Notes: a model not told the origin generated them from the letters alone. 43,869 nucleotides of DNA from an uncultured bacterium (GCA_964448115.1 CAYUVA010000039.1:1-43869); one strand, 5' to 3'; counted from the stretch's first letter, positions 3,449-43,438 are shown. Numbers and translations: made by a program.

Positions 3449-3531
3449 ATGACACATCACTAGATCCCTTCTTGATAGAGGGGACTTCCTGAACATCCCC
3501 TCCAAAAAGAGGGGATTTAGGGGTGTGTCAT
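3449..3531. repeat. REP-like palindromic element with terminal inverted repeats and two internal hairpins
   Basis: atgacacatcactagatccc ... gggatttaggggtgtgtcat is a 20-bp inverted repeat with 3 mismatches. It encloses the hairpins cccttcttgatagagggg and tcccctccaaaaagagggga. Confidence 0.65.
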
Positions 3532-3645
3532 TCACCATATCATTCTATCCTTTTCCTTCTTCGTGCCTTAGTGCCTTTGTGGTTTGACTTCTCCCTCAAG
3601 CCTATTGTATCGCCACTACATGGCTTAAGGACTGCCTGAGGCAAT

Positions 3646-6045: not shown

Positions 6046-6103
6046 CGTTTTTTCTCCATTGAAGGCGCATGAATAAAAGGAAATAAATCTTTTATTGAAA
6101 ATA

Positions 6104-6132
6104 AGTCTAATTGGATTATCCGATCCTGTCAA
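6104..6132 (-). promoter_or_regulatory. sigma70-type promoter of the GRE gene
   Basis: TTGACA (6132-6127), 17-bp spacer, TAGACT (6109-6104). Confidence 0.65.
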
Positions 6133-16104: not shown

Positions 16105-16704
16105 ATGGAATCGATGATAGTTGTAAGAATAAAGGACAATGCCCAGGTAAGGATCCGCAAGATGCGTATTGATGACCTGGAGAAATCGCTTCGATTTTTC
16201 AGGACACTCACCGAGGAGGATAGAAGATATCTTCGTGTTGATGTAACCGCTATCAAGGTGATTGAAAAGCGCATCCAGGATCTGCATTCTCAAAATATAA
16301 TACGCCTGGTTGCAGAGGCCAAAGACTTGATAATCGGAGATGCAACCTTAGAGATCGGACATACCAAGTGGGAGAGCCATATAGGTGAACTTAGGATCAT
16401 AGTAGCTCCCAAGTACCAGAACAAGGGACTGGGAAGCATCCTGGTAAAAGAGTTGATCCTAAAGGCGCTGGAGCGTGGATTGGAGAAGCTGATGATCAGG
16501 GTCATGCGTCCGCAGGAAGGAGTAAAAAAGCTCTTCAAGCCGCTCGGTTTTGCCGATGAGGTTATCCTACCGGCGTATGCAAAAGATCAAAACGGAGAGG
16601 TACAAGACCTCATTGTAATGACCTGCGACCTGAAAAAGGTAAAAGATCGACTACTCGAATCGATCAATAAGAGCAGGGAACAGTATCTTGTCCGCGAAGA
16701 GTAA
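16105..16704 (+). CDS. GNAT-family N-acetyltransferase
   Basis: Acetyl-CoA motif 'VAPKYQNKGLGSIL'. N-terminal 'FFRTLTEEDRRYL' resembles the GNAT domain of protein lysine acetyltransferases. AGGAGG near the start. Confidence 0.85.
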   Translation: MESMIVVRIKDNAQVRIRKMRIDDLEKSLRFFRTLTEEDRRYLRVDVTAIKVIEKRIQDLHSQNIIRLVAEAKDLIIGDATLEIGHTKWESHIGELRIIVAPKYQNKGLGSILVKELILKALERGLEKLMIRVMRPQEGVKKLFKPLGFADEVILPAYAKDQNGEVQDLIVMTCDLKKVKDRLLESINKSREQYLVREE

Positions 16705-19700: not shown

Positions 19701-19759
19701 TCAGCGGCGGGGGAGAAGAGGGGCTGGTTTGGGAACTGGAAAAGGTGGCAGTTCAATAA
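16688..19759 (+). CDS. GT-C (GT39/ArnT-like) glycosyltransferase fused to a PA14-like beta domain and an NHL-like beta-propeller
   Basis: 'FRTYRLD...LVDEP' DE loop, about 13 TM helices, 'RRF' motif, 'VTGSIRLPRSGIYRL', then propeller blades (GRVFVA; GNLLVL; GILYIYD..RQRIFRLD..GYIDSFG). TTG start uncertain. Confidence 0.72.
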   Translation: MSAKSKQEAPGASGKSSLSVWVPISSVIFLTTSLYSQYVIIHRSPVLGYLALLLPPIVLCLLTRRLALDEASNLLGGIRGSKLLLILGFILLVAILFRTYRLDDIAARLLVDEPIKGIWAVEIAQGASFKPFFHEKEFLFIYLEALFVLLFGANIVTLKLAAVFTGLLSLLAVYFIGRAFFSPIVGLLAAGFFSVMTWAVATNRLAERLNTAPLAVLTFYLSIKQHRQIVKLPSFIIAGASLGFGFYSFANFRPVFLIMLLFFFFFSIIERGFFLKNIAGILIYYATALFALLLPLGFELDKLQTYFLHLAGHETKLFRDLYDMLINLERGLLAFNSKAIGDMSVQPGATGYGGIIHPLLAVLFIYGLIYAIFHLVDKRNFLLFAWFGVSFLPILVSSPEPRRFNLVMPLLCLLAALGAVILGSAIFVKQGWISRVTIGALFVILFAIVSVDNFRAIFFRMYPPSNGIVPHYLAFADYALEQSKYYRVLPTIHPEQAAEFYLIMKKKADRAGVYNLEVNFRNLEEIIPLGSDPEQDVYLVISDFPEFKAELDLIEDYYPEARLKEHRDAKGRLLFYSLFLQRDEITRLIGLECVDLANKDHKARIKGGNIAQELKKSGFLGKTASDIQVTGSIRLPRSGIYRLAVHSTVPYRLRVANYLLTDDDNRTANLRFYKGFYDVELSVNGIAASDELIIELGFPQRADVAAIPSGILFSIPALDNRLKGVIPQQTEQVYRIKDMITPYYPPDKGRLVARDIIPLPYGDGYLCADYSRRLVVKYDNNWNFIAAVDPFDEIKRGFEEPFLMAAGADGRVFVARRDMVVVLGEGLKKRYHKTLNRGVIYDIAAFNNGNLLVLCIANLLLELDASGNVISESRLDNIIPEPVIEPRRLGISAQGILYIYDARRQRIFRLDRDSGYIDSFGNELVRIPGRFSIDDNGNVIYINHDLPGYIYILTPGGSLLTCPREMDETPNIAESLTAKGIDVQIEADFAALVNASFASPRLLFLSGGGEEGLVWELEKVAVQ

Positions 19760-22299
19760 TGAGGTATCTTGTCTTCATCGCAGCAATAGTCGCTGTCCTG
19801 GTTGCATCTATCGGTCAGGCAATGATCAGCGCCAATCGCCTTAGCTTGGGGCTGCTTTTTTTCGCTGTTGGGATCGCCTGCTTTATTTTTTCATACCTGA
19901 AAAGCTCCCGCCGTCCGCTAAAACCTCCCGCAATCAAGGATTCAGATCGCAGAAAAGATGCCCTGGTCAGCGCGGTTTACATCATCATCCTTCTCGTTGT
20001 AGCCCTTTTCTATCGCGGTTACCGGCTGGAGGATTACCCGGATGGATTTTACTATGACGAGGCGGTGGTCGGCATGGAGGCTCGCTTCATCATCGAGGGA
20101 GTTGATCATCCCCTGTTTGTCGAGGTTACCCACACCACAAAAGTCATATTTTGGATCATATCCATCGTCTTTCGTATATTGGGTCAATCTATCTTCACCC
20201 TGCGCTTCACCACAGCCCTGTTCGCTGCTGGCGCGGTGATTGCGAGCTATTTTCTCTTTCGCATCTATTTCTCCAGGGAGCTTTCTTTTTTCGCAGCCTT
20301 GCTGTTTGCGCTCTCCAAGTGGAACATAACCGTAACCCGCATCGGCTGGCCGGAATTTGGGCAGGAATTGCTCTGCTATGTGCTAGTTATCCTGTTCATT
20401 ATCAAAGCAACAAGAACTGGCAGATGGTACTATTACCTAATCCTCGGAGCGGTTACCTCCTTCGGTTTCTACGGGCACTTCGGCTTCAGGGCAGCTTTAT
20501 TCATCATCTTCTTCTACTTGTCTTACCTATCCATCTTCAAGAGGGGATTTCTTAAAGCCCATTTTCAAGGCATGCTTATGCTGGTCTTCAGCTTTATCAT
20601 CCTTTCCAGCCCTTACCTGGTTTATATCATCAAGCACCCGGATCAGTACACCAGTCGCATGAGGGAGACGCAGCTTTTTGCCAGAACTCCCCCCGGACAA
20701 GAGTGGCAAGAGGTCAAGAACAGCCTGAGAGCGAATCTATTGATGTTCCATTACCGCGGAGATGGCAACATCCGCCATAATATCCCCGGCGACCCGATGC
20801 TCAACCCGGTGAACCGAGTGCTGTTTTTGCTCGGGGGTTCGCTGCTTTTGGTCGGCTTATTCAAGGCGGAGACGATCCTGATGCTGCTATGGTTTCTAGG
20901 TCCACTGGGACAAAGCATCGTTACCATAGAATATCCTCACGCAACTCGAACTATGGGGATGACACCGCTGGTCTATTTCTTGTGTGCTTTGTGCCTGTGG
21001 CACCTGTACGTGGTATCCTCGAAGGTGCTCGGAAAGCGCGTTCTGAAGCCGATAGCTGCGGTTCTCTTGATCGCCATAAGCACTTACAACTCCTGGTTCA
21101 GTTGGGATTTCTACTTCAATCGCTATGCCCATACTCCAGGCGTATCCCAGGGCTTCTACAAGGCTTTCTCCGAGATAGGAAAATTCTTCAAGCAGTTGGA
21201 TAATAAATATTATGTAATCTCAAGGTATCGCCACCACGAGGAGGCTATCTTCATCTCCGGCGCCCTTAAGGACTGCCGCAATTTAATCATCGAGGAGATC
21301 CCCTACGAGAAACCTTTTTCCGATAAAGACCTTATGTTCGTGTTCCTGGCTGAGAGGTACGATCTACTCTATGCGATTAAGCTATATTACCCGAACGGGA
21401 TCGTGCACCAGGGAATAGATGACAAGACCAAAAGACCTCTTTTCACTGCCTACGAGGTGAAGCGAGAACATATAATCGAGGCGCATGGGATAAAGGCTAG
21501 ATACTTCTCGGCAAAGGAGCAAAATGGAGAGATAACACTTGAAACCAAGGAGGAATTCCCCGCTCAGGCACTGCAAAACAGGGAGAAGCAGCCAGCTTAC
21601 CCCCCCAAAAGCGCTCACTGGCAGGGATCGATCAAGATCACCCAACCGGGAACTTACAGCTTCGATATGACTGGGGTTGAAAAAGGAGTGGTTATGGTCG
21701 ATGGTGAGGTGATATTTGATTCGAGCCGACCTTGCGATGAGCGCAGGTACCTCAAGATGGGCATTGGCGTATATCCGCTTGAGATCAGGGCAAATCTTGC
21801 AGCATCCAGCGATAATCCGCCCCGACTGCGCATGATCCCGCGTGGAGCAAAACCTCTACCGGTACCTCCTAGAGCATTCTACGACATCGAGATCCCAGGC
21901 AATACAATGGCTGGCGACTTCAGGCAGGGGGAGAGCTTTGAGGGAGTGCCATACTCTCGTCGCTATCTGCCCAATCTTTCCATCGATGTCTGGGAGTGTC
22001 GGCTCTGCGATTCGCCGTGCACAATCGAGTTCAGCGGCGAGCTTGAATTACCGATGGATGGTGAATATCGCTTCCAGTTCGATTTCGATGGCACACTTAG
22101 GCTATTTATAGATGACGAGCTTGTCCTTTCCAAGCAGGACTACCATCACCGCCGCCTGGTAGAATCTCAGCCACGCGAATACAAGGCGGGGAGGCATCCC
22201 TATCGCCTGGAGATAGTGGCTCACGATGCCTGCAAGTTCTATTGGATTCTTCCCCATAAGGTTCGAGAAATAGTGCCACCAACGGCATTTCATCGATAA
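19759..22299 (+). CDS. GT-C (GT39/ArnT-like) glycosyltransferase with two PA14-like domains
   Basis: 'YRGYRLEDYPDGFYYDEA', TM bundle, 'GIKARYF...SAHWQGSIKITQPGTYSF' and 'IEFSGELELPMDGEYRFQFDFDGTLRLFIDDELV...AGRHPYRLE'. ATG overlaps the upstream TAA (TAATG). Confidence 0.78.
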   Translation: MRYLVFIAAIVAVLVASIGQAMISANRLSLGLLFFAVGIACFIFSYLKSSRRPLKPPAIKDSDRRKDALVSAVYIIILLVVALFYRGYRLEDYPDGFYYDEAVVGMEARFIIEGVDHPLFVEVTHTTKVIFWIISIVFRILGQSIFTLRFTTALFAAGAVIASYFLFRIYFSRELSFFAALLFALSKWNITVTRIGWPEFGQELLCYVLVILFIIKATRTGRWYYYLILGAVTSFGFYGHFGFRAALFIIFFYLSYLSIFKRGFLKAHFQGMLMLVFSFIILSSPYLVYIIKHPDQYTSRMRETQLFARTPPGQEWQEVKNSLRANLLMFHYRGDGNIRHNIPGDPMLNPVNRVLFLLGGSLLLVGLFKAETILMLLWFLGPLGQSIVTIEYPHATRTMGMTPLVYFLCALCLWHLYVVSSKVLGKRVLKPIAAVLLIAISTYNSWFSWDFYFNRYAHTPGVSQGFYKAFSEIGKFFKQLDNKYYVISRYRHHEEAIFISGALKDCRNLIIEEIPYEKPFSDKDLMFVFLAERYDLLYAIKLYYPNGIVHQGIDDKTKRPLFTAYEVKREHIIEAHGIKARYFSAKEQNGEITLETKEEFPAQALQNREKQPAYPPKSAHWQGSIKITQPGTYSFDMTGVEKGVVMVDGEVIFDSSRPCDERRYLKMGIGVYPLEIRANLAASSDNPPRLRMIPRGAKPLPVPPRAFYDIEIPGNTMAGDFRQGESFEGVPYSRRYLPNLSIDVWECRLCDSPCTIEFSGELELPMDGEYRFQFDFDGTLRLFIDDELVLSKQDYHHRRLVESQPREYKAGRHPYRLEIVAHDACKFYWILPHKVREIVPPTAFHR

Positions 22300-27972: not shown

Positions 27973-29370
27973 TCACTTAGACATAATTCTCCGGCGAAAA
28001 ATGCGCGGTGGTGAATCAAGCCTTTTCAGGTGTCCTTTCTCAAGGGTGAAAACATTGGTAGTAGGAGTTATGCATCTCCAATCCAGATGCCTGGTACTTA
28101 AATAATTTATGTTCCTTTGCCCATAGACGATACAGATTAGTTTGCCAGTGCCATCAAGTTGCATAAATGTAGGATTATCTGATTTATCTAAATAGATAAA
28201 AGTATCATCCTTATCTACTTCTGGAAATATAGTTTTGATTTCTGAAGTGATCCTGTGCAGTAACAGGTTGTTGTTGAAAAAGCCAATCTGCCACTTAAGA
28301 TTTGAGAAAATTATGATTGCAAGAAATAAAGTAATAAGTATCCATCGAGGCATTCTATAATATCGGTAAATTAATGAGCTTATAAGCAAAGCATAGCCAA
28401 CCAAGGAGAAATAAAGATACCAAGGGGCGGTTATATTGAATACAGGAATCAAAGGGATTAGTATTAAAATAAACGATAATTTTATTAAAACAGAATCTTT
28501 TTTATCTAATAACCTATAAATTAATAAAATATATAGAGGTATTAGCAATAATAAAAAGTAGCTGCCCTTAAAAAACAATAGAATATATATATTTTTTAGA
28601 AATATATTAATAATATGAAATATCAATGAAATATCAATATTCTTTGCTAAGTTAAAACTAGACTTTATATCTCGAAAGAGGAATAATCTGGCTAAAAGAT
28701 ACAAAATCGAAATAACTATGAATGGCAAAATTGTTTTAACACCATCTGTAAATAGAATCCATTTGCCGTTAAATATTCTCTTGTGAACAATTAAACAGAA
28801 TATAAAATATAATAAAACAGCCAGGGAGAGAGCCATCTCCTTTGCAAGTAGAGAAATAGTGAATCCAATAATACTTATTATAATATATTTCTTTGTGCCT
28901 TTTGAAATATATCTAATAAAAAATATTAAAGACACAAGGTAAAAAATAAAACATAGTGAATCGTTCCTTTTTGCCAGGTCAATTGCTACCACCGCACTTG
29001 AAATATGAGATGAGAAAATCATGCATGATAGCATTGATGCCATTATTGAGATTCCTAATTCCTTAAGAAGAAAATAGACCAAGATTACACAAATGATGTG
29101 AAATGTTAGGTTACTAAGATGATATCCCCACGCTCTTAAGCCATACAGGGCGTAATCAAGGTAAAAAGAAAGGGTGGCTAACGGTCTGATCCTGTCCTCT
29201 AATTCGATTATATAAGTCAATATCCACTTGGCAGGCTCAGTTATTTCATTGAAATAAAAGGAATAAAGATATCTTGTAATAACTTCATGGGTGAAGGGAA
29301 AACTTATCGAATAACCATAAATAATGATATTTAGGACAATTATGAAGAATATCGTTTTTTTATTATTCAT
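27973..29370 (-). CDS. AT-rich GT-C/TMTC-like membrane protein
   Basis: 'RPL..LSFYLDY.LYG...WGYHLSN..FH', 'RNDSL', 'SLLAKEMA', 'YLYFS' resemble the TMTC/PMT-like TM domain. Very AT-rich (9 G+C in 28501-28560). Confidence 0.7.
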   Translation of the reverse strand: MNNKKTIFFIIVLNIIIYGYSISFPFTHEVITRYLYSFYFNEITEPAKWILTYIIELEDRIRPLATLSFYLDYALYGLRAWGYHLSNLTFHIICVILVYFLLKELGISIMASMLSCMIFSSHISSAVVAIDLAKRNDSLCFIFYLVSLIFFIRYISKGTKKYIIISIIGFTISLLAKEMALSLAVLLYFIFCLIVHKRIFNGKWILFTDGVKTILPFIVISILYLLARLFLFRDIKSSFNLAKNIDISLIFHIINIFLKNIYILLFFKGSYFLLLLIPLYILLIYRLLDKKDSVLIKLSFILILIPLIPVFNITAPWYLYFSLVGYALLISSLIYRYYRMPRWILITLFLAIIIFSNLKWQIGFFNNNLLLHRITSEIKTIFPEVDKDDTFIYLDKSDNPTFMQLDGTGKLICIVYGQRNINYLSTRHLDWRCITPTTNVFTLEKGHLKRLDSPPRIFRRRIMSK

Positions 29371-29388: not shown

Positions 29389-31002
29389 TTACTTACCTAC
29401 CGGCAGGTATGGCCATAGGTCGCCTTCGCAGCCGCTGCCGCGGGGCATTATCTCGATAAGGATATACCCTTGCGGGATACCCGATGGGAACTTGTCTATA
29501 TCAAGCCGATAAAAGTAATTAACCGGATCTATCATCGGCATGGTCAGCCCGGTTGGCTCTCCCTCGAAGTAAATCTCCAGCAGCAAAGCCTGCCATTGCT
29601 GTGGATCGTAAGCAGCAGCGAACAGGCTCATATACCCTCCTGTGCTGCTGGTTATATGTGTATTAAGATAGCCGGCAATAATAACCCTCGGTGGTTGGCA
29701 TCCCGGAGCTGTTGCGGTTGCCGTGGGAGTAGTTGTCGGTGTTACTGTCGGCGAGGTGGCAGGGACCGTCGGCGTCGGCGTGGGGGTGCTATACAGCGAT
29801 CTAGTAAAGTAACATCTCGCAACGCCATCTTGATTATCCCGATAAACCAGGCAGGGATTCCAACCATCCTGCACCAGGACTAGCGCATCCTTGAAGCTGG
29901 CTGCATAGACAATCCACCTATTAGGCGACCATTGTTCGCTTTGGGCGAGCAGCTCGGTCAGGTAGATATTGCTCTGCTTGTGCGGCAGCCCCCTTGAGTC
30001 ATGCCAGGCGATAAAGACGCCAACCGGACTTGAGGTTATCCCCGGCATCACCGGCTGGTAGCGTATATCAGCATACTGATCGCTCATATTGGCCGGTGCA
30101 GACCAGCTCAAGCCCTGGTTTTCGGATTCGACCATGCATATTTTCGCCTCGCCTGCCGGATAATCGGCATAGACGATGCGCACCACGCTTCCGTCATCGC
30201 TGATGGCAGCCTTCTCCACGAACGATGGTTGGTACACCTTATTCAGCTCCACGGCAAGTATGGGCTGGGACCAGTGGTCTGCGTAGTCGGTGCTGCGCCG
30301 CAAATACAGCTTGTAGTTATCGTGTGCGCCGCTGGTGTCGTAATAGACGCCGTAAACCCGGTTATCGCGGGAATAGAGCGTGGGCAGACCGCTGAAATCT
30401 CCATCGTCGAGACTGAACATCCATGGCTGGGAGAACCTGTTCGTTTGGTCAGCGATCTTGATGCAATATGTCTCCCAGGTGCCGTTTTGATCACCCATAT
30501 AGAGTACCATTGCTCTATGGTCGATAATTGCCAGGTCAGGATGCTGAACATTCATTCCTTCCGGGGAGATGATCGCTGGCTCAATCCAAGTAGTTCCACC
30601 ATGGTCGTTCTTAGTGAAATAAAGCCTGCTGTCGCTGGAGCTTCCCTGCACATAAGCGAGGTACAGCCCTTCATCGCTCCCTGCCAGTGTATGATGCTTG
30701 ATCCTGATACCGCTGCTCAAAATGGTTGATGGCTCGCTCCAGGAGACGCCGCCGTCGCTGCTTCGTATATGCCTCAGGTTCCAGTAGTAGTCGGCTCTAT
30801 CCATGTAGATGATATCGATATCACTGCCAGAGGCATATATATCAACCGCCTCGGTCTCAATGGCTGGAGGTGAGATGGGGATAGGCTCTCTCCATTGGGA
30901 TTGTTCCCCCCTTTTGTCCCCCCGTGAAGGGTGGGAGGCGGTCAGTTGATACGATAGCGTAATCAGTATAAGCGCTACGAATATTCTGGGAGCTGCTCTC
31001 AT
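29389..31002 (-). CDS. Secreted BNR/Asp-box (sialidase-like propeller) protein with Thr/Pro linker and conserved C-terminal domain
   Basis: Signal peptide; Asp-boxes SSDGGVSW, NDHGGTTW, STDYADHW, SENQGLSW; linker TPTPTPTVPATSPTVTPTTTPTATAT; C-terminal domain shared with 41831-43438. Confidence 0.8.
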   Translation of the reverse strand: MRAAPRIFVALILITLSYQLTASHPSRGDKRGEQSQWREPIPISPPAIETEAVDIYASGSDIDIIYMDRADYYWNLRHIRSSDGGVSWSEPSTILSSGIRIKHHTLAGSDEGLYLAYVQGSSSDSRLYFTKNDHGGTTWIEPAIISPEGMNVQHPDLAIIDHRAMVLYMGDQNGTWETYCIKIADQTNRFSQPWMFSLDDGDFSGLPTLYSRDNRVYGVYYDTSGAHDNYKLYLRRSTDYADHWSQPILAVELNKVYQPSFVEKAAISDDGSVVRIVYADYPAGEAKICMVESENQGLSWSAPANMSDQYADIRYQPVMPGITSSPVGVFIAWHDSRGLPHKQSNIYLTELLAQSEQWSPNRWIVYAASFKDALVLVQDGWNPCLVYRDNQDGVARCYFTRSLYSTPTPTPTVPATSPTVTPTTTPTATATAPGCQPPRVIIAGYLNTHITSSTGGYMSLFAAAYDPQQWQALLLEIYFEGEPTGLTMPMIDPVNYFYRLDIDKFPSGIPQGYILIEIMPRGSGCEGDLWPYLPVGK

Positions 31003-31062: not shown

Positions 31063-32367
31063 CTATCGGAACTTGTAGCTAACCGATATGGCTGCGATAT
31101 CGAAGTTGATCCTGAACTTGCCCAGCAACGGCGGTCTCTGTGTGGAATAATCGATATTGCGCTCCTTGATGTGGTAGTATGCATAAGACAGGTCCAGGGT
31201 GAGCTTTTCGGTGGCGCGCCAGCCTAATCCAAGGCTATAGCCCTGCTTGGAGCAATCGGGCACATCGAGCCAGAATGACTCATCAGGTATGGGGGATGGA
31301 TCGTTAAGGAAACCTGCTCTCAGGGCAAACCTCTTGGTGGCTTGATACTGCACGCCCAATCGAACCTCGATGCGATCCTTCCAATTCTTGGGCAGATAGA
31401 CCTTCTCGAAATTCAGCGGATTCTCTCCGAGCAAGATCTCGTATCGCTGCATGGCTTTTGACCAGTCCATCCAGACCCCCTCGCCGCTGAGCAGCCACCT
31501 ATGGCCAAGCCTATAGCTCAATCCCAACTGACAGTATTGCGGAGTATCTATCGGCACCTCGGAGTATATCTGTATCGATTCGCCAAAGACTGGCTGCATT
31601 GGTGGAGGTATCTGTGTGGTGATATCTCCCTTGAATCTCAGTTGAATCGCCGGCACATAGTGAATCCCCAAGGTCAGCCGGTCGGTAATATCATAAAGCA
31701 ACCCGACATCAGCGGTGAAACTTCTAGCCCCGGTGCGTAATTGTGATCGTATGCGTGTATTGGGGTCTTCCATGAGTACATCGGTCAGCCCCGGGGTGTA
31801 TAGTGCATCCTGGAAGATATCGACCGAGTAATATGCGATCACTGCGTCTATATTTGCTCCTAATGCGAGTCTATCAGTAGCCTGCCAGCCGATGACCAGT
31901 CCGCTTTTTACGATATATAAACGCTCATATCGCATCATATACTTTTGCGTTCCCCAGTCTGGCCAGTCGAAGACAGCTCCATAGGGAGCAAATCCTGCAA
32001 GCCCTATGGTCCAGTTTTCCGTGCCTAGGTCATCGGTTATGGCAGCCATAGGACCGATTACTAGATGATTCTCCAGTTCTGATACCGGATAGGAGTCAGC
32101 GAGATGATCGGCAGCTCGATAGAACTCGCCGTTGTAGAGGATAGCATTACTCAGATTGAACAAGGCATTGCATCCTTTTAACTTGGCTACGCCAGCCGGA
32201 TTATAGAATACACTGGAGAGATCTTGGGCAACCGCTGTGAAGGCGCCTCCCATGCCAACCGCCCAACCGCCTTGTTCGCTGACAAAATAACCGCCAGCTA
32301 TCGCCATGGCTGGACAAACCAGTAGTACGAAGAAAAAGGGGATGGTGTCTCCTTGAAACCTAGACAT
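31063..32367 (-). CDS. OmpP1/FadL/TodX-family outer-membrane transporter
   Basis: Signal peptide, 'GMGGAFTAVAQDLSSVFYNPAG', 'APYG', 'WKD....RLG', alternating beta strands, C-terminal 'SVSYKFR'. Confidence 0.9.
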   Translation of the reverse strand: MSRFQGDTIPFFFVLLVCPAMAIAGGYFVSEQGGWAVGMGGAFTAVAQDLSSVFYNPAGVAKLKGCNALFNLSNAILYNGEFYRAADHLADSYPVSELENHLVIGPMAAITDDLGTENWTIGLAGFAPYGAVFDWPDWGTQKYMMRYERLYIVKSGLVIGWQATDRLALGANIDAVIAYYSVDIFQDALYTPGLTDVLMEDPNTRIRSQLRTGARSFTADVGLLYDITDRLTLGIHYVPAIQLRFKGDITTQIPPPMQPVFGESIQIYSEVPIDTPQYCQLGLSYRLGHRWLLSGEGVWMDWSKAMQRYEILLGENPLNFEKVYLPKNWKDRIEVRLGVQYQATKRFALRAGFLNDPSPIPDESFWLDVPDCSKQGYSLGLGWRATEKLTLDLSYAYYHIKERNIDYSTQRPPLLGKFRINFDIAAISVSYKFR

Positions 32368-32555: not shown

Positions 32556-34253
32556 TCACTGCTTTTGAAGATCTATTATCACCTGCTCATCGGTAGAAAT
32601 GTTCAGGAACGCACGGACCTCCTCGAAGGTTGCCCCGCAATCGATGAAGCGCCAGAGTTGCTTGCACTTAAGATCCGGGAAGTGATCATCGCAAAAGCAA
32701 ATATCCTCATAGGGGCGAAAGATCCCAGCCATGATATCATCCTCGAAAAGGTACGAGGCGAAGCCATCGCCGGTGCGATAAATGAGAATATATGGCTTAC
32801 TGGAAAGTAGCCTGGGGAAAGCCCGCGAGATATCATAGCTTAAATCCACAATGTAATCTGGTTCACCGGCAATCCTTCTGAATACCTTTGCATCATAGAT
32901 ATTAGGGCTTATCAGGAACTTGTGCTCCCTGGCGATATTGGCGATCAGCTCACCTGGTTCGACAAAGAACATAAGCAACTTGTCCCAAACTAGTTGACGC
33001 ATAGTTAGATGGCCGGTCAGAGGGATGAAGTTATGCTCATACTGGTATAAAAAAAGCATGTTCCAAACAACGAGAAATAATAGCACAGCGATGAATGCGC
33101 GTTGTAGGGAAGCCTTTTTCATCGTGCTTAGCAGCTCCGCAATGCCTAAAGCGAATATGGTTGTGCAATTGGCGAACTGCCGCAAGCCGAAGTGAATGCC
33201 GGTGCCGTAGTAGATCACGCTACTGTTGAGATGAAGTTGAAGCAAAAATGCCATAAAAAGCAGGATATGTACCGATTTTTTCTTGAACCCGGCTAACAGT
33301 CCGATCAGGGCGATCCCCACCATTGGCGTCCAGGTTATCAATCCGTGATTGGTAGAAAAAAGAATTGGTCTCCAGTCAGGTAATTTGATGCTTAGAAAGT
33401 TGCTGTGAGCGTAATAGTAAACAAAGTACTTGTCATGGATCGTCTTCCAGTAAATATTTTGCGGGGAAAAGCCGATCAAGACCGCGGGCAGAAAAAGCCC
33501 ATGTTTCAAGGTCGCAGCAGAGAAATCCTTGAGATCAAGCTTCCTGGCAGCCCTGAGCTGATCCCTCAATGCGTCGAAAAAGGGTAAAACCATGAATAGA
33601 GCATTCTGCCAGCGCACCATGCACATCAAGCCACCAGCGAAACCGAGAATGATCAAGCTCTTGCAGGTGGGTTTATCCCTCTGTTGAAGCCAATAATACA
33701 CAAAAATGGTTACTATAAAATAAGAGGGTGCATGATTCATGGTGGTCTGCCAGATAGTTGTATTTAGCACCGATGTTCCGCCTATCACTGCCAGGCTGCT
33801 CATGATCGATACCCGCCGACTATAAAAAAGGCACAATGTTTTGTAGGTCAATAATATAGCCAGGAAGCTATAAACCAGGTTGGCAAAATAGGCGCTAGCC
33901 TGGTGAAAGGTCGAATATACGCTGGTGGAGATCGGCAAGCCGAGCTTGTTAAAGAAAATTGCACAAATGTGAAACAATCCAAAAAATGGCGCCCATAAGA
34001 TGGCAGTCCCCACCGGCACTGAGTGATAGAAATGTGGCTGGGGATTGAAGTACTGGATACGATCCATCCAGAAAAAATCGTGATCGATCACAAAGGAGAC
34101 CACCTGTGCATAGTATCCGAAGGCGTCTCCCTCGAGGATTATCTCGCGCCCCTTGAACTTGAAGATGATCAGAAATAAAAGACAACCTATAAATAAGACA
34201 AACAGCAGTCGATAAACATTCCTGTCCGAGCACATGTCCTGGCGATTGCACAT
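32556..34253 (-). CDS. GT-C fold membrane glycosyltransferase
   Basis: 'EGDAFGYYAQVVSFVIDHD', 'PVGTAILWAPFF', 'MNHAPS', 'VRWQN', 'LFSTNHGLITWTP', 'FGLRQF'. Start at ATG 34253 or 34235 rather than 34325, which overlaps the upstream gene. Confidence 0.72.
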   Translation of the reverse strand: MCNRQDMCSDRNVYRLLFVLFIGCLLFLIIFKFKGREIILEGDAFGYYAQVVSFVIDHDFFWMDRIQYFNPQPHFYHSVPVGTAILWAPFFGLFHICAIFFNKLGLPISTSVYSTFHQASAYFANLVYSFLAILLTYKTLCLFYSRRVSIMSSLAVIGGTSVLNTTIWQTTMNHAPSYFIVTIFVYYWLQQRDKPTCKSLIILGFAGGLMCMVRWQNALFMVLPFFDALRDQLRAARKLDLKDFSAATLKHGLFLPAVLIGFSPQNIYWKTIHDKYFVYYYAHSNFLSIKLPDWRPILFSTNHGLITWTPMVGIALIGLLAGFKKKSVHILLFMAFLLQLHLNSSVIYYGTGIHFGLRQFANCTTIFALGIAELLSTMKKASLQRAFIAVLLFLVVWNMLFLYQYEHNFIPLTGHLTMRQLVWDKLLMFFVEPGELIANIAREHKFLISPNIYDAKVFRRIAGEPDYIVDLSYDISRAFPRLLSSKPYILIYRTGDGFASYLFEDDIMAGIFRPYEDICFCDDHFPDLKCKQLWRFIDCGATFEEVRAFLNISTDEQVIIDLQKQ

Positions 34254-34269
34254 ATTTAATCTTGTACTT

Positions 34270-35088
34270 CTATGAGAGCAAGTCTTTAGCGCCCTGGATA
34301 CACTGGCTGGCAAGCTCCAGTACATCTTGACCCCCAGTGGGGATGGGCAGCTTTATTGAGAAGGGCTTGGTATATCCGATGCGCAGAAGTTCGCTCAGGA
34401 TCTGCCGGTTGGGGATCACTCCCGGTCCCGGAATTATGCGATCTTGCTCGGTCATCTCTGGTCGTGGTTTTTCATTCGCATCGCCTATATAGACCGCGTA
34501 CAATCGCCTTTGGTCGATGCCCTCGATGACCTCCAACCTCGATTCACCGATATAGAAATGAAATGTATCAATTGCGATACCTACATTATTCCTATCTGTC
34601 TTGTAGATGATATCGAGTGCCTGGGAGAGTCTGCTGATCGAGCTATCTTCAAAGCCAGGGAACTCTAGCGCCAGGCCGATATCATATCGAAGTGCGATAT
34701 GAGCCATCTCCCTTAGAATATTGACCGTCTCGGCTTTTACCTCGCGATGGGTTATCTCCTTGTCCGGCAACAAGCCAGGGGTAAGGATGATGTAATTACA
34801 TCCGATCTCTGAGGCAACCTCGCTGAGGAATCGACAGTCATCCATGACCCTTTGTTGCTGCTCGCTGTGGCCGAAGTTTATGCCAGCAATGTTATAGATG
34901 CTATAAGGAGCCAACTCTGGAAAGCCTGACACCAAGGACTTTAGCTGCTGAAGGTCTTGGTCTGTGATATATTGCCTTAGCTTATTTGACACCAGGTCTA
35001 TGCAGTTGCATCCCGCTCGATGTGCAAGGGTTAGCTGGTCCTCCAGCGAAAGCTCGGACAACAAACACGCATTGAGACAAAGCTTCAT
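34270..35088 (-). CDS. Sugar phosphate isomerase/epimerase (xylose-isomerase-like TIM barrel, IolI-like)
   Basis: 'LALEFPGF', 'NVGIAIDTFHFY', 'DRIIPGPG', 'IGY..PFS'; GGAGG RBS. Confidence 0.82.
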   Translation of the reverse strand: MKLCLNACLLSELSLEDQLTLAHRAGCNCIDLVSNKLRQYITDQDLQQLKSLVSGFPELAPYSIYNIAGINFGHSEQQQRVMDDCRFLSEVASEIGCNYIILTPGLLPDKEITHREVKAETVNILREMAHIALRYDIGLALEFPGFEDSSISRLSQALDIIYKTDRNNVGIAIDTFHFYIGESRLEVIEGIDQRRLYAVYIGDANEKPRPEMTEQDRIIPGPGVIPNRQILSELLRIGYTKPFSIKLPIPTGGQDVLELASQCIQGAKDLLS

Positions 35089-35273: not shown

Positions 35274-37682
35274 TCAAGGCTCACATTCCATCTGCTTGTA
35301 TATCCTGTGGTACCTGAGCACCTTTTTCACATAGCCGCGGGTCTCATCGAAGGTGATATATGGGATGAACAGCTCGTCGGGCACATCATCATGATACATA
35401 TCAAGCCATGAGCGGACTGCTAAATCACCCGCGTTGTAGGCAGCTATTGCCAGAATAGGCTGCCCCTTGAACCTCTTGAGCAGGTCGTTGAAGTGATGGA
35501 TTCCCAGGCGAATGCTCACCTTGGGATCGAAGAGCATATCAGTATTGAAGCTATCTATTCCAAGCTTTTTGGCAACTGCCCTGGCGGTAGTGGGCATGAA
35601 CTGCATAAGCCCCTTTGCAGAGGTTGGAGAGATCGCTTTGGTGTCGAATTTGCTCTCTGCATAGATGATGCCATAGATGACATAGGGGTCTATATCATAG
35701 CTACTCGCCAGCTCTTTGACCTGATCCTCGTATTTAAGTGGATATAGCAGCCTGAGCAAGCCATAAGGTAAGAACCTGAGGTCTATCTGCGAGGGGATAA
35801 ATTCGAGCAGCTTGTGGATATACTTTATTGTCTGGTAGGGCATGTCAAGCTCGTGGTACATGGCGATCAATGAGAGGATGCTCTCCATATCGTTGTAATG
35901 CACTCTTTGATAGCCTCGGTAAATAAGTGCAGCCTCGCTAAGCTCGCCCATGAGCCATAGTTTCTTTGCATCCTTGAGATCCTCGTTGCCGCAAAAGTCC
36001 CCGTATAGCATATAGTCATTTATCGCTTGCCTCGCAAGATCGAATCCGAGAACCGAGATTTGACTCCAGGCTCTATTTTGCATCAAAGCCCGATGGTATA
36101 ATAGTTCCACTGTCTGTGGCGCCATCGATTCAGGGTAAATACTAAATATTATGTTCAGGATCTCTATCGCATCGATATATTCCCCATTTTCCAGGTTTTC
36201 TTGTGCCTCCGCAAGTAGTATGGCAGCAGTTATGACGCTCGTTTCCTGGAGGTCTTCTTGGTGAATTTTTTCAATCTCATGTTTTATCCTTTCCAGGTAA
36301 AAGGTAGATGGATAAAAGCGGATCAAATCATGGAATGCTTCGATGGCTAGTTTTGGCTTCCCAGCCCTGAGTAAGGACATTCCCTTCATGAATTGCGCGT
36401 CCTCCATGAATCTGCTCTCTGCCCTTTTTTGAATGATAAGGTCGAATTGAGATGCAGCCTCGTCGAATCGTCCAATGTCGAACAGGGTGCGTCCCAGGGC
36501 GAAGATGGAATCATCCCAGTATGCACTGCGAGATGGTTTCTCGCAAAGAACCTTGAGCACATCGATGGCTGCCTTTTTGTTACCGGTTCTAAGATAGTAG
36601 TAAGCAAGACCGTAGCGGGCGCGGTCTTCGCTTATTGAGCCATCGAGGTTTTCGAGCAGTTTACGATAGTGATAGGCAGCATAGTTGTAGCGATCGGTCT
36701 TATTGTAGATCCGCACCAATCCGAGACGAGCTTTTTCTTCCCAGCGAGACTTGGGGTATCGGCGGATGATATCCTTGAATCTGCTCCGCGCATCCTCGAA
36801 CCTCTCCTGTCGATAGTAACACATTGCAAGCTGGAACCTTGATCGAATAGCTATATGGCTATTGGGATTTTTCGCTATCGCTTCATTGAAGATCTTTATC
36901 GCTCGCTGGTAGTTTCCGTGGTAGTAATATGCCAGTCCCCGCCTGTAGATCTGCCTCTGGCTCAGTTTTATCCACTTGCTGGGGTGTTTTCTTCTCAGCC
37001 GATCGACCTGATCGCAAGCTTTGAATGCTGCCACGCTCCTCTGGTTGGAGTCGAAGATAACCTGGTACCAGTAGAGCGCTTGAAATATCTCGCCTTTCAG
37101 CTCATAAAATCGTGCTATGCGTAGCGCCATTTCACCGGTAATCTCCGAGCTTCGATATCTCTTTCTCTCCGCCTTGAGAAACTCTATCCCCTTGCTGTAA
37201 TAATATACCTTCTCATAGGCATCTACCTTGGAGTAGATCGCCTCGAGCCGAAAATGTCCTCTGGGGTACTCAACAAGGTAGCGATCCAAGATGCTGATCC
37301 CTCGCAGATAGTCCCCCTGTTCAATTGCAGCCAGCGCACAATTGTATAATCCAAGCTCGGAAAAGGCTGATTTATCATCAAGCATCCCCTGGAAAAGGGG
37401 TATAGCCAGCTCTATGCGTCCCAGCCCCTGATAGGTCTTGGCTTTGAGGTAATCGATATGAAGATCCCAGTACCAATGGCATCTCTCCATGCCGCTTATC
37501 TCGATGAGATCGATGATCCCCAAATAATCTCCCTTGAGTCTCAACTCATGGAGCATGGAGAGCAGAAGCTCCATGTCTTTGAGGTCGCAATCCGATGACT
37601 CAAGCGGTGAACATGGGTAAAATAATAGGGTAATTATCAACCACGTTGCTTCTATTGGCTTGAAGAGGTTTCTATAAATCAT
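35274..37682 (-). CDS. TPR-repeat lytic transglycosylase (Slt70-like)
   Basis: Many TPR motifs, then an SLT domain: AESKF, AKGLMQFMPTTA, AAYNAG, ETRGYVKKV. Confidence 0.9.
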   Translation of the reverse strand: MIYRNLFKPIEATWLIITLLFYPCSPLESSDCDLKDMELLLSMLHELRLKGDYLGIIDLIEISGMERCHWYWDLHIDYLKAKTYQGLGRIELAIPLFQGMLDDKSAFSELGLYNCALAAIEQGDYLRGISILDRYLVEYPRGHFRLEAIYSKVDAYEKVYYYSKGIEFLKAERKRYRSSEITGEMALRIARFYELKGEIFQALYWYQVIFDSNQRSVAAFKACDQVDRLRRKHPSKWIKLSQRQIYRRGLAYYYHGNYQRAIKIFNEAIAKNPNSHIAIRSRFQLAMCYYRQERFEDARSRFKDIIRRYPKSRWEEKARLGLVRIYNKTDRYNYAAYHYRKLLENLDGSISEDRARYGLAYYYLRTGNKKAAIDVLKVLCEKPSRSAYWDDSIFALGRTLFDIGRFDEAASQFDLIIQKRAESRFMEDAQFMKGMSLLRAGKPKLAIEAFHDLIRFYPSTFYLERIKHEIEKIHQEDLQETSVITAAILLAEAQENLENGEYIDAIEILNIIFSIYPESMAPQTVELLYHRALMQNRAWSQISVLGFDLARQAINDYMLYGDFCGNEDLKDAKKLWLMGELSEAALIYRGYQRVHYNDMESILSLIAMYHELDMPYQTIKYIHKLLEFIPSQIDLRFLPYGLLRLLYPLKYEDQVKELASSYDIDPYVIYGIIYAESKFDTKAISPTSAKGLMQFMPTTARAVAKKLGIDSFNTDMLFDPKVSIRLGIHHFNDLLKRFKGQPILAIAAYNAGDLAVRSWLDMYHDDVPDELFIPYITFDETRGYVKKVLRYHRIYKQMECEP

Positions 37683-37791
37683 CGGTTATGATCTCGATAC
37701 GGTGGGGTGTTCCCCAACCGAGCTATTGAATTACCTTATAACGATGCGAAAGGTAAACTTCAAGGATTTTGACAGGCAATCAAGAAGATGC

Positions 37792-39060
37792 CTAATTTAG
37801 CTTATAATCCCCGGTGGCAAGGAAATATGTGATGCTGCCAGCCTTTTGTTCCTCTCGGCGAGGATTAAGCTGGATAAGGCTGGCGTTACCACTCAGCACC
37901 ATTTTTCCTTCCTCGACCAGGTAATTTAGCTTATCACCCCTAAGTATTATCTTACCCTTATGAGTAACCTCGACAGCTTCCTGGGAGGTTATTGTCTTGC
38001 CATGCATGTTTACCTCCGCCTTGCCGGCGGTAATGACGATCTCATCCCTGTATATGCGCACATTCCCCTGATAAATAGCGATATTTTTTTCCTTGTCGTA
38101 GTTTATAGAATCCGCAGATATATTGAGCTTTGTCTGGGCTTTTTCTTTAAGTTGTTCCAGGAGGTTTATCGCATCCGGCGAGGGCGTGTTTTGCTTGATC
38201 TTTGCCTGTCCGAGCATCTTTTTAAATACCTCCAGGTTCTCTTGATGCTCAATAAATTTCTCCTTGCAGACCTGGGCGATCGGCTTGGAGATGACCGCAT
38301 AAAAGGTGTCGGGGTACTCCTTGATGATCTTATCAAAGTATTGCAGGGCATTATCCCATAGCCTAAGCTCACGATATGCGGAGCCGAGGGCAAAATAGAT
38401 CTTGGGTTCATCGCTCTTGCAGGTTTGCTCTTGCAGGAGCTGTTGATAGATCTCGATTGCCTGCGGGATGTTCCGCCTTGAGCTTTTCTCGTTCTGATAC
38501 ACCTGAGCCAGGTTATATTTGGCTTTGTGCAGCAGCCTGTTTTCGGTCGCTGTCTTGAGCACCTCCAGGAATGATGCCTCAGCTCCCTGCCAGTCGCCGA
38601 TCACAAACTGGCATTCACCCTTCATAACCAGGGCTTCAGGAAGTCGATCCCCCCGGTTATACTTGTCGATGATAAGATCGAGGTACTCCAGGGCTTGCGA
38701 GCAATCAGCCCTCGAGCCTTGGTTCAAGAGCTTCTCGCTCAGCAGGATCAAGGCATCATCAGCAAGTTCGCTTCCAGGGTAGCGATCCGTAAATTGGGAC
38801 AGGATGGTCTTGGCTTTCTCCCAATCATCGAGCAGGATATATGACCTTGCCATTAAGAAGTAGGCATCATCGGCATGGCTGATGCAACCAGGGTCATTAA
38901 GGCACTGATCATAATACTCTATTGCCTTTGAATATTCTTGGTGAACGAACTGGCGATTTGCCAGATCGAAATAGCTAACCTCTTTGGCTAGGCATAGAAG
39001 GTTTGCGTGTAAAGCTAATATCATAGCGACAATTAAATATGTAAAAGCTCTACAAGGCAT
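37792..39060 (-). CDS. Secreted TPR protein with C-terminal LptA/OstA-like beta-jellyroll
   Basis: Signal peptide, TPRs with 'YPGSELADDA' and 'YPDTFYA' caps, then 'ISADSINYD....AIYQGNVRI', 'LRGDKLNY......VLSGNA', 'AGSITY.L.TG'. ATG 39060 overlaps the anti-sigma TAA. Confidence 0.75.
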   Translation of the reverse strand: MPCRAFTYLIVAMILALHANLLCLAKEVSYFDLANRQFVHQEYSKAIEYYDQCLNDPGCISHADDAYFLMARSYILLDDWEKAKTILSQFTDRYPGSELADDALILLSEKLLNQGSRADCSQALEYLDLIIDKYNRGDRLPEALVMKGECQFVIGDWQGAEASFLEVLKTATENRLLHKAKYNLAQVYQNEKSSRRNIPQAIEIYQQLLQEQTCKSDEPKIYFALGSAYRELRLWDNALQYFDKIIKEYPDTFYAVISKPIAQVCKEKFIEHQENLEVFKKMLGQAKIKQNTPSPDAINLLEQLKEKAQTKLNISADSINYDKEKNIAIYQGNVRIYRDEIVITAGKAEVNMHGKTITSQEAVEVTHKGKIILRGDKLNYLVEEGKMVLSGNASLIQLNPRREEQKAGSITYFLATGDYKLN

Positions 39061-39743
39061 TACAGGGTTACCACGGTTTGGATACGGTTCGTTGTATCGC
39101 AGCCCTCGCCAAAGCATATCGATTGCACCAGCGGGGAGAATTCCTGTGCTCGGTTCGTGCCTTGGTGATCGGAGATGAAATTGATCGATTGAGCGATCAG
39201 CGGCACCTCGAAGCTACGCAACTCCCCTGATCTTCTCTGCTTCTCCAGTTTCTCGATTAGACGAGGGTCCAGATCTAACTCTGATACTGAAACCTGGTCG
39301 AACGAGGTTTCGGTTGCTGGAGTAATTGGTTCCCCTGGCAGATCGCTGTCGATCTCGTGCCTGGCTAGATAGCCAACATTGGGGCTGAAGTTTAGATATA
39401 TCCCGGAGGCGACCACGATTAAAAGAGCGCTGAGGATGGACGCGGTTGCGATCAGCTTGAATCGATGGGTTAAAAAGACGGTTGTTAAGGTGGTTTTAGA
39501 TTCCTTTGAGCCGCCGAGGTTATACTCCTCTATGATGCGATTCATGGTCTTGTTGATCAAGGCATCCTGAGGTTCGAGGGCTTTGTAATGTTCCAGGAAT
39601 GAGTTGGCCAGGTTCATCTCTTTGAGCATCCGGCTGCATTTTCCGCAACCCTGAAGGTGCTTTTTTATCTCGTTTGCCTTACTTTTCGGCAGTCGCTTGA
39701 GTGAAAAATCATCTAGTACCCTTTTTACATCCTTGCATCTCAT
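39060..39743 (-). CDS. Zinc-binding (zf-HC2/ZAS) transmembrane anti-sigma factor
   Basis: MRC...HLQGCGKC (HxxxCxxC), one TM helix, ATGA overlap with the sigma gene. Confidence 0.85.
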   Translation of the reverse strand: MRCKDVKRVLDDFSLKRLPKSKANEIKKHLQGCGKCSRMLKEMNLANSFLEHYKALEPQDALINKTMNRIIEEYNLGGSKESKTTLTTVFLTHRFKLIATASILSALLIVVASGIYLNFSPNVGYLARHEIDSDLPGEPITPATETSFDQVSVSELDLDPRLIEKLEKQRRSGELRSFEVPLIAQSINFISDHQGTNRAQEFSPLVQSICFGEGCDTTNRIQTVVTL

Positions 39744-41830: not shown

Positions 41831-43438
41831 CTACTGTAGGATATTCATAAATGGGAAGGGTTCAGTGAGCCTGCCGTCCTTGGTAGTGCAGCGGCATTCC
41901 AGCAGAATAAGACCAGGTGCCAGGGCGCCTGGCTCGATGCCAAGCGGTGGAAGCATGAATATACCGCTGCCTGGGGGACTTTCCGGCAGGGTTACTCCAG
42001 TAGCTGCTTCGTTGAAGTAAAGCTCGCATCCTGAGAAACCATGCTCCGCAGGGTCTGATGCATAAATAAGCAAGGTCAAATTACCACCTGTTGATGAAGT
42101 GATCATAGTATCCATATAGCCACCTAACAGGATCAATGGATTCGGCAAGGGTGTTTCTGTGGCGGTTGCAGTAGGCTGCTCGGTCGGCTCCTCGGTCGCG
42201 GTCGGAGTCGGGGTCTCAACAGTCGCAGTGGGAGTGTTGGTCGCTACGGTCGGCGTTGAGGTCGCTGTCGGAGTATTGGTCGGTGGTATGGCTGTCGGGG
42301 TCGAGGTGAAGGTCATGGTGGCTGTGGGCAAAAGAGTAAAGGTGCTGGTTGCCGTCGGAGTCTCCGTGGGTACAGTTGCCGTTGGAGTATTGGTCGGCGT
42401 ATCGGTTGGTGTATCGGTAACCGTCGGGGTGGCTGTGCTGGTCGGAGTATGGGTAATCCCCTCCAGCATTACATCATAATGCGATTCGGGTCCAAAATAA
42501 CCGTTGTTGTCGAAGATTTGTATGTAATAGATGTTCTCCGAGTATCCAAGAAAATCTACCCTTGATGCCAGGGTATCGTTGTAATCGTTGTTGTGATCGA
42601 CATAGTATTGGTTCTCATCGAGAAGATATAACACCGTGTCCACTCCCGGCTGAAGATTCAATGTATATATAGCAAACATGGTGCTAGGAGCGCTCCAGAA
42701 GTACAGCCAATCCTCGTCGTTGGGATCGCAGAACAGATGCGTCTGCGGGGGGTGGTTCAAGATTATCTCATTGGCGCTGCCGGCATCGTTGTCATACTCG
42801 TAGGGATCATCGTTGGTGCATGGAGTGCTGGTCGGTGTTGCAGAAGGAGTGCTGGTCGGAATAGCACTGGGGGTGTTAGTAGGCGTGAGGGTCGGAGTCA
42901 TACTGGGCGTTGAGCTCGGAAGCATGGTCGAGGTGGGAGTCATTGTCGGAGTATCACTTGGCAATGGGGAGGGAGTGTAGGTGTGAAAGTTCACCATTAT
43001 CCGGTATGAGTTGGTCGCTCCCCAGGCTCCATTAGCGCTCTCGATAACTATGTAAAAGATGTCCTCGTAATCTAACATGTCATAGTCGATTCTCGATGCT
43101 AATGTTTCGTTCCAGTCATTATTTTCATCCACCGGAGATAAGGTATTATCCATCAACAGCATGGTGGTATCTACATTGCTGTTCAGATCAAAGGTCTCGC
43201 AGGAAGCAACATATCCTGAGACACCATAGAATGACATGAAGTCAACATCCCCCTCCTTGCAAAGGTAGTGAAGCTGCGCTGTGCCATCGGTAGGGATGGG
43301 TGTAGCCAAGAAATACACATCATTTGGCTCGTAGGCATCATTAGCACATGGATCGATTGCATAAGAGCTGCCAGGTGTAGCCAAAGAGACCACTAGTAAT
43401 CCAAGCCCTACTAAAAAGACCTTCAAAGGGACTGGCAT
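41831..43438 (-). CDS. Secreted acidic protein with two PPC-like domains, two Thr/Pro linkers and the conserved C-terminal domain
   Basis: Signal peptide (..SSYA/ID); repeated domain D.YE..ND...Q.H..C...D.D...F...VDT..L....VD.NND.N.TLASR.D; long TPT tracts; AGGAGG RBS. Confidence 0.82.
   Translation of the reverse strand: MPVPLKVFLVGLGLLVVSLATPGSSYAIDPCANDAYEPNDVYFLATPIPTDGTAQLHYLCKEGDVDFMSFYGVSGYVASCETFDLNSNVDTTMLLMDNTLSPVDENNDWNETLASRIDYDMLDYEDIFYIVIESANGAWGATNSYRIMVNFHTYTPSPLPSDTPTMTPTSTMLPSSTPSMTPTLTPTNTPSAIPTSTPSATPTSTPCTNDDPYEYDNDAGSANEIILNHPPQTHLFCDPNDEDWLYFWSAPSTMFAIYTLNLQPGVDTVLYLLDENQYYVDHNNDYNDTLASRVDFLGYSENIYYIQIFDNNGYFGPESHYDVMLEGITHTPTSTATPTVTDTPTDTPTNTPTATVPTETPTATSTFTLLPTATMTFTSTPTAIPPTNTPTATSTPTVATNTPTATVETPTPTATEEPTEQPTATATETPLPNPLILLGGYMDTMITSSTGGNLTLLIYASDPAEHGFSGCELYFNEAATGVTLPESPPGSGIFMLPPLGIEPGALAPGLILLECRCTTKDGRLTEPFPFMNILQ

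Follow-up and report, generated by a model that had tools for sequence, protein, structure and literature searches.

Two genes in a 43,869-nucleotide stretch of DNA from an uncultured bacterium (GCA_964448115.1, CAYUVA010000039.1:1-43869; hereafter the window) code for exported proteins that differ in their passenger domains and share a homologous C-terminal domain. What is this domain, and what does it do on unrelated proteins? An earlier reading of the window (the original prediction) had proposed a new sorting or anchoring signal. Shared terminal tags are a way for bacteria to sort or anchor whole sets of surface proteins, and to our knowledge each of those characterised so far (LPXTG, PEP-CTERM, SLH and the C-terminal domain (CTD) of the type IX secretion system (T9SS)) has led to dedicated machinery. 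Our analyses establish that the shared part is a real domain family, fused to the ends of ~160 unrelated exported proteins of a single genome, including most of the largest ones. We refer to it as the ‘WPYL domain’.

Both genes are intact and lie on the minus strand, the first (29389-31002) coding for a protein of 537 residues and the second (41831-43438) for one of 535 residues. Their features are the following, with scores from Pfam or from the hidden Markov model (HMM) of the domain described below.

29392..29706, minus strand: copy A of the immunoglobulin (Ig)-like WPYL domain, C-terminal, residues 433-537 of 537, loop-less type 1 (HMM, 1.2e-24)
29707..29790, minus strand: Thr/Pro-rich linker from the BNR passenger to copy A (read in the translation)
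29791..31002, minus strand: signal-like N-terminus and BNR/sialidase-like propeller passenger (Pfam BNR_2, 9.3e-11, residues 73-247)
41834..42145, minus strand: copy B of the WPYL domain, last 104 residues of the 535-residue protein, loop-less (HMM, 2.8e-25)
42146..42448, minus strand: long Thr/Pro-rich linker preceding copy B (read in the translation)
42449..43438, minus strand: signal-like N-terminus and two homologous passenger repeats of ~125 residues with a Thr/Pro linker between them (repeat alignment)

The last ~105 residues of the two proteins are homologous. Copies A and B share 36% identity over 81 residues (BLASTP, E 6e-14), which is far beyond chance, and the ITSSTGG stretch is identical in both. 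The original prediction had described this pairing correctly, together with the propeller of the first protein and the Thr/Pro linker before each copy. It had also excluded a C-terminal transmembrane helix and a basic tail; indeed, only a few residues follow the last strand in both proteins, and their tails are neither hydrophobic nor basic. The passenger repeats of the second protein are 37% identical over 122 residues (E 4e-21) and have no Pfam or NCBIfam match at E <= 1. Since Pfam has no match, the label ‘PPC-like’ given earlier to this passenger is unconfirmed.

We searched the genome from which the window comes (G000; 3.98 Mb in 86 contigs, 94% complete). Its open reading frames (ORFs) were called mechanically, the signal-segment, exported-protein and subtype calls follow our own heuristics, and the genome counts from profile searches are matches, not genes. 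A profile built from the two window copies gave 150 scored matches in G000. After iteration to convergence on the mechanically called ORFs, the domain HMM detected 201 copies in 163 ORFs, with one copy in 127 of them, two in 35 and four in one. These ORFs amount to 151,358 residues, or ~11% of the DNA of G000, and the domain marks ~5% of its genes. The family first noticed as two copies is thus represented by 163 proteins.

The domain is mostly found at the very end of these proteins. In 143 of the 163 (88%), no more than 15 residues separate the end of the last copy from the C-terminus, and the median distance is 2 residues. A terminal motif of the [W/F/Y]P[Y/F]L type is present in 120 of the 143 terminal copies, and in 105 of these 120 the protein stops 3-4 residues later, mostly in E, D or Q. 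Nevertheless, 20 of the 163 proteins do not end in the domain. In six of these, it stands directly behind the signal segment and before GH31, FGE-sulfatase-like, FG-GAP or unrecognised passengers, and in about 14 it is internal and followed by Thr/Pro linkers and PKD or other modules. One of these exceptional ORFs is unreliable because it contains a run of X. Furthermore, more than one copy is present in 36 of the 163 proteins. Two G000 proteins (C29:36661-38718, minus strand, and C16:63855-66227, plus strand) extend ~120 residues beyond the domain and stop abruptly in a Pro/Asn-rich ‘...DGAT.V.PN’; their endings are alike, as if a further module had been cut off.

The proteins that carry the domain appear to be exported. 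A hydrophobic N-terminal segment was detected, with a crude, home-made rule, in 149 of the 153 5'-complete domain ORFs; in the background set, made up of ORFs with 300 residues or more and including spurious ones, the figure was 734 of 1645. Only 4 of the 153 have a lipobox-like site. Among the crudely predicted exported, non-membrane proteins, the domain is present on 36 of the 40 with at least 1200 residues and on 43 of the 72 with 800-1200 residues; the corresponding figures are 43 of 119 at 500-800 residues, 11 of 209 at 300-500 residues and 3 of 280 below 300 residues. Windows of 20 residues rich in Thr and Pro occur in 129 genes, and the domain is present in 108 of them. The passengers are diverse. 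They include BNR, PQQ and Kelch propellers, beta-helix, purple acid phosphatase, subtilase, caspase-like and C25 peptidase domains, and the hydrolases among them comprise GH31 proteins, peptidases and phosphatases; 17 of the 28 passengers checked have no Pfam match.

The copies form two types. Type 1 (116 copies, median 101 residues) includes both window copies, and type 2 (85 copies, median 106 residues) has an inserted, Asp-rich loop. The terminal position is open to either of them (type 1 in 81 proteins and type 2 in 62). The N-terminal strand carries a GYxxT motif, with Thr or Ser three positions after GY in 181 of 190 copies, and many copies have a G-N-x-S turn ahead of the last strand. 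The terminal aromatic-Pro-aromatic-Leu strand is found in 167 of the 201 copies; it reads [W/F]P[Y/F]L-x-[I/V] and lies 3-4 residues from the stop codon. The domain has an acidic character (median net charge -8).

AlphaFold2 predicted a beta-sandwich both for copy A (type 1; mean predicted local distance difference test (pLDDT) 89.5, predicted template modelling score (pTM) 0.79) and for a loop-bearing type 2 domain (pLDDT 93.6, pTM 0.85). Structure searches with these models returned generic Ig, FN3 and E-set matches only. The best Foldseek E-values were 5e-3 and 6e-3, and the best VIA Z-score was 8.6, inside the range that the tool calls common, with FN3 and Ig matches at 8.0-8.6. FN3-like modules, X-modules of glycoside hydrolases and the Ca-binding adhesin SiiE are among the structures matched. 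Searched by sequence, the PDB gave no match to the domain at E <= 1, all ESM Atlas scores were below 0.9 and to Ig-like clusters only, and a word-index search with a single domain retrieved only the query itself. We conclude that the copies make up a single, undescribed family of acidic domains of ~100 residues with an Ig-like beta-sandwich fold.

This conclusion agrees with the searches of family databases. No Pfam family was matched by more than one of 38 copies; the single weak matches were to DUF4625, CarboxypepD_reg, Big_7, Big_3_4, BBP2 and Big_13, those to Big_7, Big_13, Big_3_4 and DUF4625 being at E 0.003-0.08. No family of carbohydrate-binding modules (CBMs) in Pfam or NCBIfam matched any of the 38 copies. 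The absence of a strong match to a characterised family, on which the original prediction depended, extends to Pfam, NCBIfam, PDB sequences and a profile comparison with T9SS CTDs. In one detail the original prediction was wrong, namely that the domain is wholly unrecognised: the loop-bearing subtype carries the choice-of-anchor X motif of NCBIfam (NF041940; 37 positions, cut-off 25 bits). This model matches 8 of the 38 copies at E <= 0.1, and 4 of 9 loop-bearing copies that we retested pass its cut-off. It aligns only to the inserted Asp-rich loop, at about residues 52-80 of the domain, and window copies A and B do not match it at E <= 1. Since loop-bearing copies match and the window copies do not, NF041940 marks a sub-feature of part of the family.

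The motif itself is more widespread. Among the 61 genomes that we compared, 21 have it, in quite different contexts and usually with 1-7 matches; the domain-rich genomes have 59 (G000), 22 (G041) and 8 (G022). When the domain HMM was run on nine NF041940-bearing ORFs from other genomes, it matched one (G060), partly and at 1.4e-6. The G035 ORF of this kind ends in what appears, from its sequence pattern, to be a T9SS CTD. In the literature searched, we found no paper on ‘choice-of-anchor X’. Among the titles listed for choice-of-anchor, none concerns the WPYL domain, and a term search of PMC8248873 gave nothing on secretion, the C-terminus or the surface, the sole match being ‘Gram negative’.

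We assessed the taxonomic range of the family using 61 genomes (G000 and 60 from other phyla), 7 and 14 genomes of two of those phyla and 701 matches from a protein library. G000 is the only species of its phylum in a collection of 199,900 species, and its nearest FtsH relatives in the 60 other phyla are at most 64% identical. FtsH identity gave no clear answer as to whether the three phyla with the domain are most closely related to one another. Two of the 60 other-phylum genomes are domain-rich, G041 with 36 matches and G022 with 16, and G053 has one marginal match. In the phylum of G041, all seven genomes have 28-41 matches. In that of G022, 11 of 14 have 4-49 matches, and the three that have none (G077-G079) are from other families. 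In total, 19 genomes bear the domain (G000; G041 and G061-G066; G022 and G067-G076). The last copy lies within 7 residues of the C-terminus in all 22 proteins retrieved from G041, G022 and G053, and the terminal strand motif is kept across the three phylum-level groups.

The representative library, with 1.84 billion proteins, yielded 701 matches at E <= 1e-3 and 118 at 1e-30. Among the best 150, 28 were from G000 itself and 120 others matched the domain HMM. All of these 120 have two copies because the list was ranked by summed score, and 92 of them end in the domain. The named records carry the label Candidatus Coatesbacteria, candidate division CSSED10-310 or simply ‘bacterium’, and the proteins are annotated as hypothetical or lamin-tail-domain proteins. 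The giant repeat proteins P0003 and P0066 were rejected as members, their scores being the sum of many weak per-repeat matches. Among the genomes searched, the family is confined to three rare phylum-level lineages. The features that the original prediction had expected of a tag are thus present: C-terminal position in G000 and in all the proteins from three other genomes, signal-like N-termini according to our crude rule, and restriction to few lineages.

Every domain-bearing genome of the phylum of G022 also codes for a small protein of ~160-220 residues in which a signal-like segment and a short N-terminal part precede a single domain copy (e.g. L114:7495-8163, plus strand; loci L113-L122). 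It harbours the best-scoring copy in most of these genomes. Its neighbourhood is the same in 7 of 10 loci and contains only housekeeping genes, for SelA, a FabF-like synthase, an Mfd-like helicase and an IF-2B-like protein.

Regarding function, we favour a shared extracellular module for retention or attachment, to which we give a probability of roughly 0.4 based on the architecture of the proteins. The passenger would leave by Sec export and cross the outer membrane by some T9SS-independent route. The domain would then retain it in the matrix or on the cell surface through non-covalent binding to an envelope component, and in the loop-bearing, choice-of-anchor X subtype this attachment may depend on calcium. 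Such a role would be akin to that of an SLH, dockerin or cell-wall-binding module, not to that of a translocation signal. We prefer an anchoring module because N-terminal, internal and tandem placements are tolerated, which is usual for such modules but not for obligatory C-terminal signals, and because our searches turned up no machinery. G000 has few other mass tags, with one SLH, two dockerin, no PEP-CTERM and no T9SS type A matches, the last two models being without a positive control. The sorting or anchoring tag of the original prediction holds insofar as the domain is numerous, nearly always C-terminal, borne by proteins with signal-like N-termini and lineage-restricted; the recognition machinery that it implied was not found, and the 20 non-terminal and 36 multi-copy proteins suit a binding or anchoring module that tolerates various positions better than an export signal tied to the C-terminus.

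Several points weigh against attachment. The strong bias towards the extreme C-terminus and the fixed tail of 3-4 residues would also suit an export or processing system that reads the terminus. No binding site can be argued for because the structure matches only generic Ig and FN3 folds, and an acidic domain would not readily be expected to bind to an anionic envelope without bridging cations. We infer the function from the architecture of the proteins, and the counts of signal segments and exported proteins rest on a crude hydrophobicity rule and mechanical ORFs.

Could the domain instead be an export or sorting signal, read by an undescribed outer-membrane translocon or sortase-like processor and standing in for the T9SS CTD where lineages have no T9SS? 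We consider this somewhat unlikely, although it is kept alive by the C25 peptidases, by the fixed terminal tail and by the SprA searches. The domain is not a T9SS CTD, yet it occupies the same slot. All six C25 peptidases of G000 end in the WPYL domain, and the five examined from SprA-positive genomes all end in FlgD_ig, Por_Secre_tail or CHU_C; the latter set is limited to five proteins, as six further loci gave no ORF to the BLAST filter. SprA_N (PF14349) has no match in G000, at 94% completeness, nor in G022 or G041, whereas 16 of the 60 other genomes have it, 15 of them over the cut-off, as ORFs of ~2000 residues. A different export route would therefore be needed in the domain-rich genomes. 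Further in favour of an export signal are the predominance of terminal copies with a short tail in G000, the consistently terminal copies of the other genomes and the number of tagged proteins, which is of the order of T9SS cargo sets.

Nevertheless, N-terminal or internal domains in 20 proteins and multiple copies in 36 make a pure or obligatory C-terminal export signal fit less well. No candidate machinery emerged, the conserved neighbourhood of the small one-domain protein consisting of housekeeping genes only. Of the ten genes for FadL-like outer-membrane proteins in G000, only about three touch domain genes, as judged by eye from the coordinates and with no statistical claim. Furthermore, the slot equivalence holds only in part in G022 and G041: of the seven C25 peptidases whose C-terminus is complete, two have the domain and five do not, and an eighth is truncated where the retrieved sequence stops.

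It is doubtful that the domain is a passive structural module, i.e. an Ig-like cap or spacer or an aid to folding or stability, shuffled between genes through the repetitive DNA of the Thr/Pro linkers. The generic Ig and FN3 structural matches, the weak single matches to Big_7, Big_13, Big_3_4 and DUF4625, internal and tandem occurrences as in ordinary Ig spacers, and the tight coupling to Thr/Pro linkers would all fit such a module. However, a spacer has no reason to come last in 88% of the proteins here and in all 22 elsewhere, nor to keep its terminal strand motif across three phylum-level groups, nor to be present on nearly all the largest exported proteins.

An outward-directed binding module, CBM- or adhesin-like, for an environmental polymer or another cell is improbable. 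C-terminal beta-sandwich modules of secreted enzymes are commonly carbohydrate-binding, the structural matches include modules of glycoside hydrolases and SiiE, and some of the passengers are hydrolases (GH31, peptidases, phosphatases). Nevertheless, many of the passengers either are propellers and not enzymes or belong to no recognisable family, and no CBM family matches the domain.

The same genomes are rich in PMT-like GT-C glycosyltransferases. G000 has 90 PMT_2 matches, 76 of them over the cut-off, and the window contains five genes for PMT_2-type GT-C membrane proteins, one of which codes for a C-terminal PA14 domain.

11451-12962, minus strand: PMT_2-type GT-C membrane protein gene
16688-19759, plus strand: PMT_2-type GT-C membrane protein gene
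19729-22299, plus strand: PMT_2-type GT-C membrane protein gene
27973-29370, minus strand: PMT_2-type GT-C membrane protein gene
32556-34325, minus strand: PMT_2-type GT-C membrane protein gene

The gene at 27973..29370 lies 19 bp downstream of the first domain gene on the same strand, with which it is possibly associated. Its product has a weak PMT_2 match (PF13231, 27.9 bits) that is over the cut-off, and no family at E <= 1e-5 in a general scan of the window proteins. At that same threshold, the domain-rich genomes rank first to third of the 61 for PMT_2 (50, 36 and 27 matches, the first figure being from only 50 scored candidates of 117), while in the remaining 58 genomes the median is 3 and the highest count 25. 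In the phylum of G022, domain and PMT_2 counts are correlated (Spearman 0.65, n = 14), but such correlations are overstated because the genomes are kin and not independent. Label shuffling on the gene order of G000 gave a marginal result for adjacency: 15 domain genes have a PMT_2 neighbour as against 9.4 +/- 2.9 in shuffled orders, 85 of 2000 of which reach 15. The parallel expansion of GT-C enzymes suggests a heavily glycosylated surface.

By analogy with TMTC and TMEM260, by which eukaryotes attach O-mannose to folded cadherin and IPT Ig-like domains, the folded WPYL domain, the hydroxyl residue of its GYxxT motif or the Thr/Pro stalk might serve as acceptor or recognition site for these enzymes, as would suit the conserved Thr/Ser, the PMT_2 ranks and correlation and the neighbouring window gene, but we regard such a glycosylation handle as very improbable given the marginal adjacency, the inflation of correlations by kinship and the GT-C expansions in genomes that lack the domain (38 in G078, 25 each in G018 and G046).

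In its most far-reaching form, the proposal would be that the WPYL domain serves as address tag in an undescribed system for outer-membrane export or surface attachment, independent of T9SS and common to three rare phylum-level lineages with record labels such as Candidatus Coatesbacteria and candidate division CSSED10-310. It would replace the T9SS CTD on cargo of similar kinds and might be coupled to mass O-glycosylation by the dozens of PMT-like GT-C enzymes of these genomes. We think that this is unlikely. The domain recurs in every or most genomes of two other rare phyla, and the search for the T9SS translocon gave no match in the three domain-rich genomes. Should it indeed be an address tag, it would indicate an unknown envelope system in these lineages, of which metagenomes are the only source. 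Even as no more than a binding or structural module, it would be a ready marker for the surface proteome and merit a family model.

The window harbours other genes of interest. On the same strand as the BNR-domain gene, and 60 bp upstream of it, is a gene for an outer-membrane protein of the FadL/TodX family (31063-32367, minus strand). A PFL-like glycyl-radical enzyme of 828 residues and an adjoining radical-SAM activase with extra ferredoxin-type clusters are encoded at 2311-6132 (minus strand). The region 35274-39117 (minus strand) codes for two envelope fusions, TPR with an SLT lytic transglycosylase (802 residues) and TPR with LptA/LptD_N (441 residues), beside a gene for an ECF-type sigma factor and a 227-residue ORF with no assignment.

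How does the WPYL domain compare with known systems? Signals of the PEP-CTERM or LPXTG type are ruled out, in agreement with the original prediction: there is no motif-helix-basic tail, and the proteins end 3-4 residues past the last beta-strand, mostly in E, D or Q. The PEP-CTERM model PF07589 has no match in G000, nor in the control genomes. With generic bacterial Ig-like (E-set) and FN3 domains, the family shares the fold class, its G-N-x-S turn included. However, Big_7, Big_13, Big_3_4, DUF4625 and FN3 are typically internal repeats, unlike the mostly terminal WPYL domain.

The likeness to SLH domains and dockerins is in the architecture. These too are single modules present on many unrelated exoproteins, mostly terminal, with either end tolerated and no membrane anchor, and the acidic character and possibly Ca-binding loop of the WPYL domain are in keeping with them. 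The differences are its beta-sandwich fold, the lack of an identified cohesin-like or polymer partner and the lack of sequence similarity. As had been predicted, none of the 38 copies matches PF00404 (dockerin) or PF00395 (SLH), and the two dockerin matches and the SLH match of G000 do not coincide with the coordinates of the listed domain matches.

The closest parallel is with the T9SS CTDs (PF18962/TIGR04183, FlgD_ig PF13860 and CHU_C PF13585), as which we rejected the domain. None of the 38 copies matches Por_Secre_tail, TIGR04183, FlgD_ig or CHU_C at E <= 0.1, although the Pfam library finds T9SS CTD families on 5 of 5 C25 proteins of SprA-positive genomes, and profile-profile comparison with six T9SS CTDs gave an hhalign probability of 0.3%. 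These results and those for SprA_N in the three domain-rich genomes bear out the earlier statement that no T9SS CTD motif could be recognised. Two other searches have controls that failed likewise: the T9SS type A model TIGR04183 has no match in G000 or in the control genomes, and the GldM and GldK TIGRFAM equivalogs gave no usable matches, the SprA-positive controls included. The WPYL domain is also longer (~100 residues as against 72-86 model positions in the T9SS CTD families), occurs in N-terminal, internal and tandem placements as well, and is abundant in genomes devoid of detectable SprA_N. Like the T9SS CTDs, it is an Ig-like beta-sandwich at the extreme C-terminus of proteins with signal-like N-termini and many kinds of passengers; both are present in dozens to hundreds of copies per genome, and both occupy the same slot on C25 peptidases.

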